64,000 bases of DNA from assembly GCA_002083635.1 (NCBI GenBank), contig MSXP01000005.1, positions 344,592 to 408,591 of the forward strand. Direction: 5' to 3'. The position numbers were made by a program, and so were the translations under genes. The stretch comes from Proteobacteria bacterium ST_bin12 (GTDB taxonomy: Bacteria > Pseudomonadota > Gammaproteobacteria > Burkholderiales > Methylophilaceae). The notes beneath the pieces are model-generated. The model was not told the origin of the DNA, made no database searches, and saw only the letters and a program-made list of their open reading frames with translations. Every line of letters starts with the position of its first letter. Within the stretch, counting starts at the first letter, position 1. Below are positions 10,054 to 64,000 of this stretch, in pieces.

Positions 10054-10130
10054 GCGCCCGTAGCTCAGTTGGATAGAGTGTTGGTTTCCGAAGCCAAAGG
10101 TCGTGGGTTCGACTCCCGCCGGGCGCACCA
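10054..10130 (+). tRNA. tRNA-Arg (anticodon CCG)
   Basis: Folds by hand as a cloverleaf: acceptor GCGCCCG/CGGGCGC, anticodon stem TTGGT/GCCAA, loop TTCCGAA, T-arm GTGGG-TTCGACT-CCCGC, encoded CCA. Confidence 0.95.
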
Positions 10131-19027: not shown

Positions 19028-19114
19028 TGGTGCCGGGAGGGGGAATCGAACCCCCACGTTGTCGCCAACGCGGGATTTTGAGTCCCGTGCGTCTACCAAT
19101 TCCGCCATCCCGGC
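19028..19114 (-). tRNA. tRNA-Leu (anticodon CAA)
   Basis: The reverse complement GCCGGGATGGCGGAATTGGTAGACGC...CGGGACTCAAAATCCCG...TGGGGGTTCGATTCCCCCTCCCGGCACCA has a long variable arm, acceptor GCCGGGA/TCCCGGC and encoded CCA. Confidence 0.95.
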
Positions 19115-39959: not shown

Positions 39960-40379
39960 CTACGCTACCGACTTAACCACATAATCGTGGGTAATTTCTA
40001 CCGATTTGGCTAACATAATCGATGCTGAGCAATATTTTTCGGCCGATAGCTTCACTGCGCGCTCAACTTGAGTTTCATTTAAATTATCGCCAGTAATCAC
40101 AAAATGCACATGAATTTTAGTAAACACTTTTGGCACTTCATCCGCGCGCGTTGCATCAATTTCTGCCACACAATCCACAATCGGCTGACGCGCTTTTTTT
40201 AAGATAGTCACCACATCAAAAGAAGTACACGCGCCCATGCCAATCAATAGCATTTCCATGGGGCGCATGCCAATATTGCGGCCACCGTTTTCTGGCGCAC
40301 CATCTAACACAACCGCATGCCCAGTCTCAGATTCACCCACGAAACTGACATCTTCAACCCATTTAATTCTTACTTTCAC
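39960..40379 (-). CDS. OsmC-family protein
   Basis: 139 aa with the two conserved Cys contexts GMGACTSFDV and AEKYCSAS. Confidence 0.8.
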   Translation of the reverse strand: MKVRIKWVEDVSFVGESETGHAVVLDGAPENGGRNIGMRPMEMLLIGMGACTSFDVVTILKKARQPIVDCVAEIDATRADEVPKVFTKIHVHFVITGDNLNETQVERAVKLSAEKYCSASIMLAKSVEITHDYVVKSVA

Positions 40380-40416
40380 GATTTATTCCTACTTTACTTT
40401 TAAACGTTACTAACTT

Positions 40417-40541
40417 AAAAATTATCAGTTTCTAAGCCAAACAAGGCGCAAGGTCGAAAAAGCGTGCGCAGCATACAAGCAGTATGTAAGCGCGATTTTT
40501 CGACCTTGCAACACCGTATGGCGACGAAAATGATGATTTTA
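40417..40541 (+). repeat. extended imperfect hairpin element, family copy A
   Basis: Outer arms are 40417-40432 and 40526-40540. Inner arms are GCAAGGTCGAAAAAGCG (40448-40464) and CGCGATTTTTCGACCTTGC (40491-40509). The apex is CATAC-AAGCA-GTATG, flanked by AGGCG and GCAACACC. Confidence 0.6.
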
Positions 40542-41015
40542 TTTAACGTCTAGGAGCTCTACGTCAAATATAAGTGTGGCATTCGGCGGAATCGCACCAC
40601 CTGCACCGCGTGCGCCATAACCCATTTCAGATGGAATAATTAAGGTGCGTTTACCACCAATTTTCATGCCAGCAAATCCCTCATCCCAGCCTTGAATCAC
40701 TTGGCCACCGCCCAAAAAGAAATTAAATGGCTGTTTTCTATCTAGGCTGCTATCAAACTTTTTGCCTTTTTTGCCTTCTGCCGCTTCATCGTATAACCAG
40801 CCTGTGTAATGCACGGTAACATTAAAACCCGGCTCTGCCTCGCGGCCTGTGCCTACTTGTGTGTCAATTTTTTGTAATTCGGTAATGGTTGCAGTCATTG
40901 CTGTTTTTTCCTGTGGTGGTGAATTAGATTCGGCTTGGCAGCCTGATATTGTGATTAATAATAATGTTAATGTACTTATATAAAATCTTTTGCTAATCAA
41001 TTTTTGCTCCCTCAT
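40539..41015 (-). CDS. FKBP-type peptidyl-prolyl cis-trans isomerase lipoprotein
   Basis: 158 aa with lipobox ITISGC and FKBP motifs (VHYTGWL, FDSS, FFLGGGQVIQGWDEG, YGARGAGGAIPPNATLIFDVELL). Confidence 0.85.
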   Translation of the reverse strand: MREQKLISKRFYISTLTLLLITISGCQAESNSPPQEKTAMTATITELQKIDTQVGTGREAEPGFNVTVHYTGWLYDEAAEGKKGKKFDSSLDRKQPFNFFLGGGQVIQGWDEGFAGMKIGGKRTLIIPSEMGYGARGAGGAIPPNATLIFDVELLDVK

Positions 41016-47647: not shown

Positions 47648-47935
47648 ATGAAAATTCGTCCATTACACGATCGCGTGATTGTAAAACGCTCTGAAGAAGA
47701 ACGCACAACAGCATCTGGCATTGTCATCCCTGATTCTGCCACAGAAAAACCAGATCAAGGTGTAGTGCAAGCAGTGGGTAACGGTAAACGTGATGACAGC
47801 GGCAAAATCAATGCATTAGACGTTAAAGTTGGCGACAAAGTTTTATTCGGCAAATACGCTGGCCAAACCGTAAAAGTTGACGGCGAAGAGCTGCTAGTGA
47901 TGCGCGAAGAAGACATCATGGCGATTGTTGAATAG
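47648..47935 (+). CDS. groES: co-chaperonin GroES
   Basis: 95 aa. Contains [14 protein letters not shown] and [15 protein letters not shown]. Confidence 0.97.
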
Positions 47936-47981
47936 TTTAGTATTTAATTAAATATTTTTATTTATTAATTTTTAATAGTAA

Positions 47982-48104
47982 GCAAAACATCCGAGCGATT
48001 GAATAAGTAGGCGCAGAAAAGCTTAAAAGCCGGAGTTTACAAATAGTAAATGAGGATTTTTAAGCTTTGAATGCAACACCCTTATTCAGAGCGAAATGTT
48101 TTGC
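47982..48104 (+). repeat. extended imperfect hairpin element, family copy B, inside the groES-groEL spacer
   Basis: Paired arms are GCAAAACAT/ATGTTTTGC, TGAATAAG/CTTATTCA and AAAGCTTAAAA/TTTTAAGCTTT. The apex is TTTAC-AAATA-GTAAA, flanked by AGGCGCA (48009-48015) and TGCAACACC (48072-48080). Confidence 0.6.
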
Positions 48105-48112
48105 CACAATAG

Positions 48113-49765
<1,653 letters not shown>

Positions 49766-49784
49766 TTCCATTCCTCACTTCTTC

Positions 49785-49873
49785 GGTGATGCGTTGTTGG
49801 TTTCATTATTTTTTCCTTGCCGTACTTAACGTACTGTCTGCGTCAAAAAATGATTTCACCGCCTAGCCTCACC
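49785..49873 (-). repeat. extended imperfect hairpin element, family copy C (inverted orientation), in the groEL 3' region
   Basis: Reverse strand reads GGTGAGGCTAGGCGGTGAAATCATTTTTTGACGCAGACAGTAC-GTTAA-GTACGGCAAGGAAAAAATAATGAAACCAACAACGCATCACC. T6/A6 arms pair, outer GGTGA/TCACC pair. Confidence 0.5.
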
Positions 49874-49914
49874 ATCGAATTGAAGCTGGAATGCGATCAG
49901 TAGCATTCAAAAAC

Positions 49915-49940
49915 AAAACCTCGCTTCGGCGAGGTTTTTT
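49915..49940 (+). terminator. groESL intrinsic terminator
   Basis: AAAACCTCGC-TTCG-GCGAGGTTTTTT (GC stem, tetraloop, T6). Confidence 0.9.
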
Positions 49941-50327: not shown

Positions 50328-50759
50328 TTGAATGGTTGGAAGAGAATTGGTGTGGTACTGTCAGTAATATGGGCTTTGATGGTCATTACATATGCTATTT
50401 ATGAATACTCCAAGTTTCCACTAGAGCCATTTACTACTTACCTAAGTCCCCCAGATTCTGTAACCAACGAACAAGCTAAGAATTTTTATTTTGTTGTCAT
50501 TCGCGGAGAATCTGGACTGGAGGCAAAATCCAGTGCTGAACTCGCCTTATACGAAGAGCTGATTCGCGTGGCTCCAACTGAATCTGATCGTCAGTTACAA
50601 ATTGCAGCACGCGACCTTACTGAGTATTCTTCTGGTGTAGCTTGGATGACTTTTTTAATGTCTATTCTATTACCAGTTGGACTAATTTGGGGACTAAGTT
50701 TAGCTGGCTACCGCATACTATTATGGATACGTAAAGGCTTCAATAACGAGCAAGCGTAG
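50328..50759 (+). CDS. hypothetical membrane protein (N-terminal TM, two C-terminal TM)
   Basis: 143 aa with a TTG start 6 nt after GGAG. No recognised motif. Confidence 0.5.
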   Translation: MNGWKRIGVVLSVIWALMVITYAIYEYSKFPLEPFTTYLSPPDSVTNEQAKNFYFVVIRGESGLEAKSSAELALYEELIRVAPTESDRQLQIAARDLTEYSSGVAWMTFLMSILLPVGLIWGLSLAGYRILLWIRKGFNNEQA

Positions 50760-50763
50760 TAGG

Positions 50764-50783
50764 GTGGGTCACTTGTGACCCAC
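50764..50783 (+). terminator. stem-loop, possible terminator of the two-gene membrane module
   Basis: GTGGGTCAC-TT-GTGACCCAC, with only a distant T-run. A related GCGTGGGT word recurs at 50812-50819. Confidence 0.3.
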
Positions 50784-50846
50784 GCATTGCAATTTTCAAT
50801 ATTCCACATCCGCGTGGGTTCGAGAACTCACCTTACGAAAATATAT

Positions 50847-52365: not shown

Positions 52366-52535
52366 AAAAAAAACCCCTATTAAGGGGAATAAATCGGGGT
52401 AAAAGGCCTCATTGTCTAAGGCTTCCGCTCAGGGAGGAAAGAAGCGGAAAGAAAACTAAGCGTCAACTTAGCTTTCATGGTAATTCTGACTAAGGCTTAT
52501 TCGCTTAGTTCCAAGTTTTTGAGACTTTTTTCTGC
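52366..52535 (-). ncRNA. candidate small RNA (strand and 5' end tentative)
   Basis: The minus strand ends in CCCCT-TAAT-AGGGG plus T8 (52366-52387). Upstream is the hairpin TTCCGCT/AGCGGAA (52423-52449), whose minus-strand loop reads TCTTTCCTCCCTG (anti-SD-like). Two further CTAAG/CTTAG hairpins follow. No promoter was identified. Confidence 0.3.
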
Positions 52536-63266: not shown

Positions 63267-64000
63267 CTATTGCGCTGAAAATATTAAATTATCGGCTTTA
63301 GCATGCAGTTTTTCTGGCGCGGTTATTGGTGTTGAACAGGCATGATTCACACAAATAAATGCTGCCGCTTTAGCTAATGTTGGATATTGCACATCGGGAT
63401 TTGGCATTTTGCCCTCAGCCGTATCCCACCATTCAATACGCCGATATACCACAGGATATTGCAGGGCTTTTCGATACAGCGCTTGCGCCGCCGCGTCCGA
63501 CTTGCTGCCCACAATAGTGATATGTGCTGGGTCTGCTGCCAACTCATCTGCCGCCATTAATGGCCCAACCAAATAGCGGACGTTATCAGGATTATCTAAG
63601 GTCACAAGATATTGCATGGCGTGTGATGCAGTTTTTTTATAATCTTGGTTGCCCGTGTAATGTAGTAATTTATTCGCCAAGCGCGCGATACTCACGTTCG
63701 CTTCCATCTGCAATAACGGTTGTTGAAACACGCCTTTGCTGTTTTTAGGGATAGCCGCAGCCGCAAAACCAATAGTGGATTGAAAGTTTTTCTCAATAAA
63801 AGCCATGCCTGCGCGTGATTTTTCCAGCCACGCTCTGTCACCTGTAGAAATATAAAGCGCCAGATAGGCCTCGGCCATTGCTAGCGTATCGGCTAAATAA
63901 GGCCCTGCGCGGTCTTTTTCGCCGTGTTTAAAACCGCCATCGCCTAAGCCTCTATTGGCTTCTACCCAATTAGCGGCTTTAATCGCGCGATTCAATACAA
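63267..64000 (-). CDS. C-terminal part of a thioredoxin-domain (DUF255/YyaL-like) protein with six-hairpin glycosidase-like domain; N-terminus off the right edge
   Basis: The frame is open to the window end. GDGGFKHGEKDRAGPYLADTLAMAEAYLALYISTGD resembles the alpha/alpha-toroid part of YyaL-type proteins. Confidence 0.6.
   Translation of the reverse strand, partial: VLNRAIKAANWVEANRGLGDGGFKHGEKDRAGPYLADTLAMAEAYLALYISTGDRAWLEKSRAGMAFIEKNFQSTIGFAAAAIPKNSKGVFQQPLLQMEANVSIARLANKLLHYTGNQDYKKTASHAMQYLVTLDNPDNVRYLVGPLMAADELAADPAHITIVGSKSDAAAQALYRKALQYPVVYRRIEWWDTAEGKMPNPDVQYPTLAKAAAFICVNHACSTPITAPEKLHAKADNLIFSAQ

Follow-up and report, generated by a model that had tools for sequence, protein, structure and literature searches.

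The DNA analysed here, referred to below as the window, is a stretch of 64,000 nt from Proteobacteria bacterium ST_bin12 (assembly GCA_002083635.1, contig MSXP01000005.1, positions 344,592 to 408,591), and it contains three imperfect hairpins that we call A, B and C. We propose, with a probability of about 0.8, that these hairpins are old, mutually divergent, non-autonomous repeats of the ERIC/IRU superfamily, which insert into the intergenic spacers of transcription units. ERIC, also named IRU or RU-1, was reportedly described by Sharples & Lloyd in 1990 and by Hulton et al. in 1991. The kind of element is known, and what is new is the occurrence of ERIC-type elements in a new host lineage. 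ERIC has been described as a 127-bp element of Enterobacteriaceae and Vibrionaceae that resembles a MITE (miniature inverted-repeat transposable element), has TA at its termini and is co-transcribed (PMC10969869, PMC2229807, PMC3184786, PMC2267715). In contrast to that host range, the bacterium that carries A, B and C is, as its GroEL homologues confirm, a Methylotenera, a betaproteobacterium of the Methylophilaceae. Our literature search found no paper on ERIC-like elements outside the Gammaproteobacteria, and none that prints the apex words given below.

Three hairpins with the architecture of ERIC

Element A (40415..40541, + strand) is an imperfect hairpin of ~127 nt (125-127) with ends TAAAAAT...ATTTTA. 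It fills the 159-nt spacer between the genes for an FKBP-type isomerase (40539-41015, -) and an OsmC protein (39960-40379, -), and its motif strand is antisense to both. Element B (47982..48104, +; 123 nt) lies in the spacer between groES (47648-47935) and groEL (48122-49765), sense to the operon, and its 3' end is 5 nt ahead of the groEL Shine-Dalgarno sequence AGGAG (48110-48114). Element C (49769..49889, -; ~121 nt) is partly decayed and is found downstream of the groEL stop (49765) and ahead of the intrinsic terminator of this gene (49915-49938), with its motif strand antisense to groEL. Orientation relative to the flanking genes is evidently not fixed.

The core of A (40444..40515, +) consists of AGGCG, a stem, a CAG/UAAG loop, a GCATAC-AAGCA-GTATGT apex, the returning stem and CAACACC. 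That of B (48009..48080, +) has the same outer words, each followed inwards by a stem arm, around a GGAG/UGAG tandem G.A loop and a TTTAC-AAATA-GTAAA apex, and that of C (49793..49864, -) reads AGGCG...GCAGACAGTAC-GTTAA-GTACGGCAAG...CAACAAC. The expression AGGCG..TAC-N5-GTA..CAACA matches exactly three sites in the 64 kb, which are A, B and C, and a relaxed motif scan of the window found no copy beyond them. The distance from AGGCG to CAACA is exactly 70 nt in all three, while the apex is offset by 1-2 nt among the copies. The copies represent three different apex subtypes, and that of B is the nearest of the three to E. coli ERIC (GGAGCTTAC...GTAAGTGA). A match to AGGCG-N5-CAACAAC at 63719-63735 was dismissed as chance (E 0.12).

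An earlier reading of these letters, which we call the original prediction, had singled out the same three sites, and all the coordinates and words that it quoted are present in the sequence. Its span for B holds, and A and C run slightly past the ends it gave. The site and layout of C were correctly recognised, although this copy is partly decayed and the quoted 89-nt span folds weakly (z -3.1 on the + strand and -1.3 on the - strand); when C is extended to 49768-49890, a 123-nt rod with the layout of A and B is obtained (-29.2 kcal/mol, z about -2). The AGGCG and CAACA(C/A)C words are also present, and across the family they broaden to (A)AGGC(G/T) and YAAC(R)(A/C).

From the outside inwards, the layout comprises a lineage-specific outer stem, which is TA-ended where the ends are readable; an asymmetric internal loop whose 5' side is (A)AGGCG and whose 3' side, at a distance of 70 nt, is YAACRC; a main stem that varies; a purine loop in which GAG/UGA corresponds to tandem G.A; and an apical 6-bp stem that runs from a conserved G.U pair to TAC/GTA and closes a loop of 4-5 nt. 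The same order of outer stem, AAGGCG/CAAC loop, main stem, purine loop and apex is found in the folds of E. coli ERIC (130 nt), A (125 nt) and B (123 nt).

The original prediction had not recognised the hairpins as ERIC. This did not hold: they follow the ERIC/IRU architecture point for point, and one descriptor and one covariance model join them to bona fide ERIC. The descriptor, AGGCG-N24-26-TAC-N5-GTA-N23-25-CAACAMC, was derived from the window and retrieved a Buttiauxella copy (L115) that contains AATCCCCAGGAGCTTACAT...AAGTAAGTGACTGGGGT and carries the sites of the primers ERIC1R and ERIC2, whose sequences are printed in 233 papers. Used as a query, L115 matches all complete E. coli genomes (5,426/5,426) with 80-84% identity, and the median number of places per genome is 9. 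In E. coli, the copy located between sltY and ettA (L142) contains the ERIC2 primer exactly, as well as ERIC1R in reverse complement. The sequence GAAGGCG ... GGAGCTTAC-ATAA-GTAAGTGAC ... is found in E. coli copies, the copy between yeiL and psuT has GCCAACGCAC, and the E. coli copy L272 can be written AGGCG-N25-TAC-ATAA-GTA-N25-CAACG, which again gives the 70-nt span.

The covariance model, R1, was built from 84 non-redundant cores, all from other genomes, and a second model, R2, was built without the ERIC-like gammaproteobacterial seeds. R1 scored B at 53.2 bits (E 1e-13), A at 47.7 bits (E 5e-12) and C at 34.4 bits (E 5e-8), and nothing else in the window exceeded 13 bits; the corresponding R2 scores were 50.5, 45.4 and 39.1 bits. 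Chance matches to the pattern score below about 21 bits. E. coli ERIC reached 29.6 bits with R1 (E 1e-6) and 8.7-14 bits, in register, with R2. The Buttiauxella copy, itself an R1 seed, scored 59.3 bits with R1 and 40.6 bits with R2, and Providencia copies, two of three of which are R1 seeds, scored 54.0-63.4 bits and 36-52 bits, respectively. Both architecture and covariance model thus place A, B and C in the family.

These scores also bear on the notion that A, B and C are merely three coincidental hairpins, which could be entertained since the 64 kb hold just three copies and C folds weakly. This notion is refuted, and its probability is negligible, given the R1 E-values of 1e-13 to 5e-8, obtained with cores from other genomes only, and the identical 70-nt span in A, B and C. 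Nor is there any shortage of further copies, the outcome that the original prediction had named as fatal to its proposal, as more than 200 relatives were found elsewhere in genomes and metagenomes.

Compared feature by feature, ERIC/IRU/RU-1 and the window elements are alike as imperfect palindromes of ~125-127 nt in intergenic, putatively co-transcribed DNA, with A (125-127 nt), B (123 nt) and C (~121 nt) close to the ~127 bp of ERIC. They share, in register, the AAGGCG ... CAAC(G/A)C internal loop with its 70-nt spacing, the tandem-GA (GGAG/UGA) purine loop and the nnTAC-loop-GTAnn apex, as well as an outer stem and the use of both orientations, and A also has TA at its ends, as ERIC does. 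The predicted gene layout puts A, B and C in intergenic positions within transcription units, in either orientation, and, like ERIC, they are interspersed multicopy elements of variable position, with three copies in the window and changes at all three sites in seven relatives. Unlike ERIC, the stems and termini of A and B have no sequence-level similarity to it, and neither element matches the consensus core (the ERIC1R/ERIC2 region); the words common to A/B and the ERIC core are only short (AGGCG, GGAGyTTAC, GTAArTGA, CAAC). The apex loop has 5 nt in A, B and C versus 4 nt in E. coli, and the betaproteobacterial host has a low copy number with three apex subtypes. We conclude that A, B and C share the architecture of ERIC and belong to its superfamily, and that they are not ERIC by sequence.

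Distribution, covariation and strand asymmetry of the family

Relatives of the three hairpins occur in several phyla. The original prediction had suggested that a descriptor be scanned beyond the window. On viral contigs the descriptor gave 17 matches, none of them a comparable hairpin, which indicates its chance level. Across bacteria and archaea, scanned with one genome per species, at least 120 loci were obtained; 94 of the 126 matches listed fold as a single hairpin with the motifs in matching places. Among the matches listed, several genomes each supply many copies, and hairpin elements are found in at least six bacterial phyla. They include Gammaproteobacteria (Endozoicomonas, Ca. Endonucleobacter, Providencia, Buttiauxella, Pseudomonas, Thiomicrospira and Ca. 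Poriferihabitaceae), Betaproteobacteria (Methylotenera, Methylophilaceae), Thermodesulfobacteriota (Desulfuromusa, Geobacter, Desulfosarcina and others), Bacteroidota (Tidjanibacter, Alistipes, Bacteroidaceae), Bacillota (many Clostridia, Peptococcaceae, Phascolarctobacterium and the isolate Emergencia timonensis), Patescibacteria and Nitrospirota. The same 8-kb loci contain ~20 extra copies that fail the pattern.

A metagenome search with the B-type apex alone (CCGGAGTTTAC-N5-GTAAATGAGG) returned 145 copies with 47 different stems. The flanks, which were not part of the search, carry (A)AGGC(G/T) at -19 to -21 and a peak of YAAC at +16/+17, often as AAGGCG...CAACGCAG, as in ERIC. The apex subtype of C occurs twice, with entirely different stems, in the Methylotenera metagenome-assembled genome (MAG) L024. 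The 3' outer arm of A (40516-40541; CAACACC-GTATGGCGACGAAAA) is nearly equal to that of the sponge symbiont Ca. Poriferihabitaceae (L126/L128; CAACACC-GCATGGCGACGAAAAG), and it is also reminiscent of the GTATGACGAG that E. coli ERIC has at its 3' end.

The stems of the family covary, and its motif strand folds better than the complement. Folded as RNA, A gives -56.0 kcal/mol (z -9.2) on the + strand and -50.4 kcal/mol (z -8.2) on the - strand, and B gives -44.1 (z -8.1) and -37.4 kcal/mol (z -5.8), respectively. A statistical check of covariation on the 84 independent cores found 86.5% of cells paired, compared with 62% in column shuffles, none of which (0/500) reached the observed value, and with 30-40% when the partners were slid; changes on both sides were seen in 11 of the 15 modelled pairs. 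Loop motifs that are shared while the stems differ and compensate, and a structure under constraint, are what the original prediction had described, and both points are borne out. The first pair of the apex stem is G.U in 62 of 84 copies; GA precedes the stem and GA follows it, giving tandem G.A pairs. Outside the core, the 35-nt flanks on each side pair with one another in 92% of copies (z below -2; median z -5.9), and with such a family-wide outer stem the whole element measures about 125-145 nt. In a seed set that had been selected by folding, the fold of the motif strand is favoured over that of its complement by 6 kcal/mol on average (88% of seeds, p 1.6e-13); in a set chosen only by the apex word, the flanks likewise pair better on the motif strand (-3.8 kcal/mol, p 6e-4).

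Turnover, termini and mobility

The elements are gained, lost and replaced among Methylotenera relatives. Seven related loci were fetched through GroEL homologues, and filled and empty spacers coexist among these relatives, whose GroEL proteins are 97-99% identical. The groES-groEL spacer, which is 186 nt long in the window with B, is 53-58 nt long and empty in five of the seven. In L146 (L146:9834-10000), it holds a different, C-type copy in the opposite orientation, inserted at a point that in the empty form is the loop of a small palindrome, TTTGGT-TTA-ACCAAA, and in L148 (L148:9791-10000) it holds an unrelated palindromic repeat with CCACAGAGAACACAGAG ends. The Methylotenera groES-groEL spacer (window 47936-48121) is thus an insertion hot spot, with three palindromic elements in three lineages. 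Downstream of groEL, C is common to the window and L145 (L145:11672-11742, nearly identical), L148 and L149 hold another ERIC-like copy, and three relatives have a different hairpin.

In the FKBP-OsmC spacer, A is identical in L147 and L149 and absent from L148, and the Methylotenera MAG L105 carries an exact copy of it. Its orthologue in L059 has a 5-bp block swapped on both arms (GGTCG/CGACC to TATAA/TTATA), and those in L143 and L145 have one C-G pair replaced by T-A. The apex has decayed in L143. In L145 (L145:3183-3254, GCA_000799165.1), the inner 60 nt lie inverted between the AGGC/CAACACC flanks, with 50/60 matches in reversed versus 44/61 in forward alignment; this inversion is the footprint of arm-to-arm template switching or recombination within the hairpin. 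A is therefore old, evolving by paired compensating changes plus one internal inversion. The presence/absence pattern and these orthologue variants together imply that the elements come, go and are replaced, and that copies drift after insertion with their arms changing together.

This turnover bears on the possibility that the hairpins are locus-specific cis-regulatory RNAs, such as a processing site, stabiliser or thermosensor of groESL or a regulator of FKBP-OsmC. Such a role would suit the position of B in a heat-shock operon, in sense and 5 nt upstream of the groEL ribosome-binding site, that of C in the groEL 3' untranslated region ahead of the terminator, and the high stability of the hairpins. 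However, the presence/absence pattern already largely refutes it, as the groES-groEL spacer is empty in most close relatives and otherwise holds an opposite-orientation copy or an unrelated repeat. In addition, A and C are antisense to the host transcripts, and elements of this type adjoin unrelated genes in hundreds of loci. A scan of the window against Rfam 15, at the gathering threshold and with E up to 5, gave no match on A, B or C, and at the gathering threshold none was found on the elements of 18 loci from other taxa, including E. coli ERIC. We consider this explanation very improbable. The leaning of the original prediction towards an RNA or protein-recognition element rather than mobile DNA fails at the same point; of the conservation at orthologous spacers that it had proposed to check, that of A was found, with the element kept or varied in relatives, but that of B was not.

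In other genomes, the elements occur in bursts with TA-flanked inverted termini. The termini differ by lineage and, where sharp, begin and end with TA. They read TATACCC...GGGTATA in Endozoicomonas, TATACTC...GAGTATA in E. coli ERIC, TAGACCTC...GAGGTCTA in the organism of metagenome Ga0210402, and AAAAAAGTCAT... in Tidjanibacter. Endozoicomonas and the Ga0210402 organism have clear TA ends, and A also starts and ends with TA. The Ga0210402 organism (40.6% GC) has 83 near-identical B-type elements in 215 kb, or ~1 per 2.6 kb, on L153, L183, L185, L186, L190, L193, L214 and others, many of the elements in tandem at 115-145-bp spacing. No multicopy open reading frame (ORF) and no parent insertion sequence (IS) was found in these 215 kb. 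The original prediction had held that the elements are not recent, near-identical MITEs; this is right for the genome of the window but wrong for other genomes, where near-identical bursts with TA-flanked terminal inverted repeats make them MITE-like by its own standard. A search for a linked protein family by all-against-all comparison of the ORFs of 120 genome loci gave only generic families, namely response regulators, ABC-F, EF-G and GGDEF/EAL proteins.

Could the elements then be ordinary cut-and-paste MITEs, in which a deleted IS (for example, IS630-like with a TA target) has left its two long terminal inverted repeats head to head and the fold has no role? The compensating stems would then reflect co-evolution of the ends with a transposase plus self-correction of the palindrome. 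The TA-bearing inverted termini of Endozoicomonas, E. coli ERIC and the Ga0210402 organism, the near-identical bursts and tandem arrays, the tolerance of both orientations, and the decay (L143) or internal inversion (L145) of orthologous copies all agree with this explanation. On the other hand, termini that vary by lineage around an interior shared across phyla are the opposite of what an element recognised by its terminal repeats should display, and the 5' AAGGCG and 3' YAACRC words are not inverted copies of one another. The conserved G.U pair, the tandem G.A pairs and the better fold of the motif strand indicate a constraint on one strand, and no parent IS or multicopy ORF is present even beside 83 copies. 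On balance, we regard an ordinary cut-and-paste MITE as rather unlikely.

Strand asymmetry would also be expected if the elements were dispersed genes for a small trans-acting or protein-binding RNA, with the motif strand transcribed alone and bound by a widely conserved protein, and the conservation of the purine loops and apex across phyla points in the same direction. Between co-directional genes, dispersed copies are antisense rather than sense by 24:12 in genomes and 30:14 in metagenomes (54:26 in total, 2:1), in tallies that are based on crude ORF calls, and such a bias against the host genes would fit independent transcription. In the Ga0210402 burst organism, however, the bias is the reverse, with 17 sense to 6 antisense copies. 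Moreover, consensus scans of the motif strand found no promoter-like site beside A or B and no terminator-like site beside A, B or C; no terminator-like site was called in the FKBP-OsmC spacer that holds A, and the sole promoter-like site near C (49970-49941, -) is a weak consensus match ~80 nt upstream. Copies decay at orthologous sites, and tandem arrays and TA-flanked ends are traits of mobile DNA. Dispersed small-RNA genes are, in our view, an improbable explanation.

Several observations weigh against our own interpretation of A, B and C as ERIC-type repeats. When A and B were compared with the 5,426 E. coli genomes by blastn (word 11, E up to 10), no match was obtained, so that homology to ERIC rests on architecture, shared motifs and intermediates rather than on sequence identity. 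With R2, E. coli ERIC is aligned in register but detected only weakly, and the link to E. coli therefore depends on R1, on the Buttiauxella and Providencia intermediates and on architecture. Most of the non-proteobacterial records are MAGs. The tabulation of copy number, orientation and target-site duplications that had been advised in the original prediction yielded only three copies in the 64-kb window, in mixed orientation, and no clean duplication is readable for B or C, where the spacers with and without an element have diverged too far. Across about 240 loci, neither a transposase nor any other linked gene was found, which leaves the mobilisation step entirely inferred. Arm-to-arm templated repair can produce covariation in a DNA palindrome even in the absence of selection, and the internal inversion in L145 indicates that arm-to-arm events do occur. 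Given the 2:1 antisense bias, the mRNA in most copies carries the less structured complement, which is awkward for a role at the RNA level.

Proposed spread, other repeat systems and further features of the window

The interior of the elements is conserved across phyla and strand-asymmetric, while the termini vary, a combination that is apparently unreported in the literature searched and that points to recognition of the folded single strand by a putative factor. In the mechanism that we propose for the ERIC-type repeats, spread would proceed by way of a step in which the motif strand is recognised in its folded single-stranded form, as single-stranded DNA (ssDNA) or RNA, and this step would be performed by a putative trans-acting factor encoded elsewhere. 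If a factor reads the folded strand, conservation of the interior and not of the termini would be accounted for. Once inserted, copies would drift, and their arms would be kept complementary partly by selection and partly by hairpin-templated DNA repair. In Yersinia, the RNA hairpin of ERIC alters mRNA decay through RNase E in an orientation-dependent manner (PMC2229807, PMC3184786, PMC10969869). By analogy, inserted copies would be co-transcribed and might change mRNA stability or processing depending on orientation; B could mark a point between groES and groEL at which mRNA processing or stability changes, and the role of A and C could be that of 3' or intercistronic hairpins. If the hairpins are ERIC-type repeats, no new RNA gene has to be invoked for the FKBP-OsmC spacer, the groES-groEL spacer or the groEL 3' region.

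A wider and more tentative possibility is that ERIC is one branch of a pan-bacterial class of ~125-145-nt structure-defined rods, in which one folded strand (ssDNA or RNA) is recognised by a widespread trans-encoded factor. Under this possibility, AAGGCG/YAACRC, G.A, G.U and TAC/GTA within 70 nt would be the common signature from Pseudomonadota to Bacillota, Bacteroidota, Thermodesulfobacteriota, Nitrospirota and Patescibacteria, around which stems and termini could differ freely. If true, MITE-like repeats would have a mobilisation or RNA-protein pathway that has yet to be described for them. The family in any case extends far outside the Enterobacteriaceae/Vibrionaceae range given in reviews, and it keeps a strand-specific interior as its ends change. 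What moves ERIC and what role it has have been questions since 1990, and a cross-phylum structure model allows phylogenetic profiling for a partner. The Methylotenera orthologues, for their part, provide a natural time series of one element, with intact, block-compensated, internally inverted and decayed states, and this series tells selection on structure apart from DNA repair templated by the palindrome.

Among other known repeat systems, the Correia/NEMIS elements have 26-nt conserved terminal inverted repeats and are restricted to Neisseria. Like A, B and C, Correia/NEMIS and the RUP elements of Streptococcus pneumoniae are small, TA-flanked, hairpin-forming intergenic repeats, and according to reviews they are co-transcribed and affect mRNA processing. 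Unlike A, B and C, they are defined by conserved terminal inverted repeats and are genus-restricted, a distinction drawn from descriptions. On the same footing, the host and the variable termini of A, B and C argue against membership in Correia/NEMIS.

REP and REPIN sequences with their RAYT (Y1 transposase) are likewise structure-defined palindromic repeats. REPs are 20-40 nt long with a GTAG or CGTC head, and a domesticated HUH enzyme is believed to act on REP/REPIN in the form of single-stranded hairpins. REP/RAYT may therefore serve as the nearest model for recognition of a strand-specific hairpin, although A, B and C have no GTAG head. A link to RAYT was considered and rejected: L146 has a RAYT-like Y1 transposase gene near groEL (L146:12601-13149; Pfam Y1_Tnp, E 6e-6), and it is flanked by classical GTAG REPs (GTAGGGTGGGTCAC...), not by ERIC-type elements. 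The window contains the same repeat as flanks this gene, a GTAG-headed REP at 50759-50785 (+; GTAGGGTGGGTCACTTGTGACCCAC), which constitutes a second repeat family in the window, unrelated to the ERIC-type elements.

Integron attC sites are also recognised by fold rather than sequence, have variable stems and are strand-specific. They need complementary R''/R' boxes (RYYYAAC / GTTRRRY) at the base of the hairpin. By inspection, AGGCG and CAACAMC are not complementary, and GTTRRRY is found on neither strand, the reverse strand reading GTTGCAA, GTTGCAT and GTTGGTT. No integrase gene or cassette array is present with A, B and C. Of the systems that had been set aside at the outset, REP (no GTAG head) and attC (failing boxes) were rightly excluded, but ERIC, whose architecture is shared, was not.

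The window also holds RNA features of other kinds. A match to Rfam RF02837, anti-hemB (Burkholderia RNA 7), lies at 52366-52450 (-) and scores 51.8 bits (gathering score 49.5); it contains both a UCCUCCC loop and a terminator, and places this betaproteobacterial small-RNA family here in Methylotenera. Two tRNA genes (Rfam RF00005), unrelated to the hairpins, are located at 10054-10127 (+; 67.7 bits) and 19031-19114 (-; 60.5 bits).

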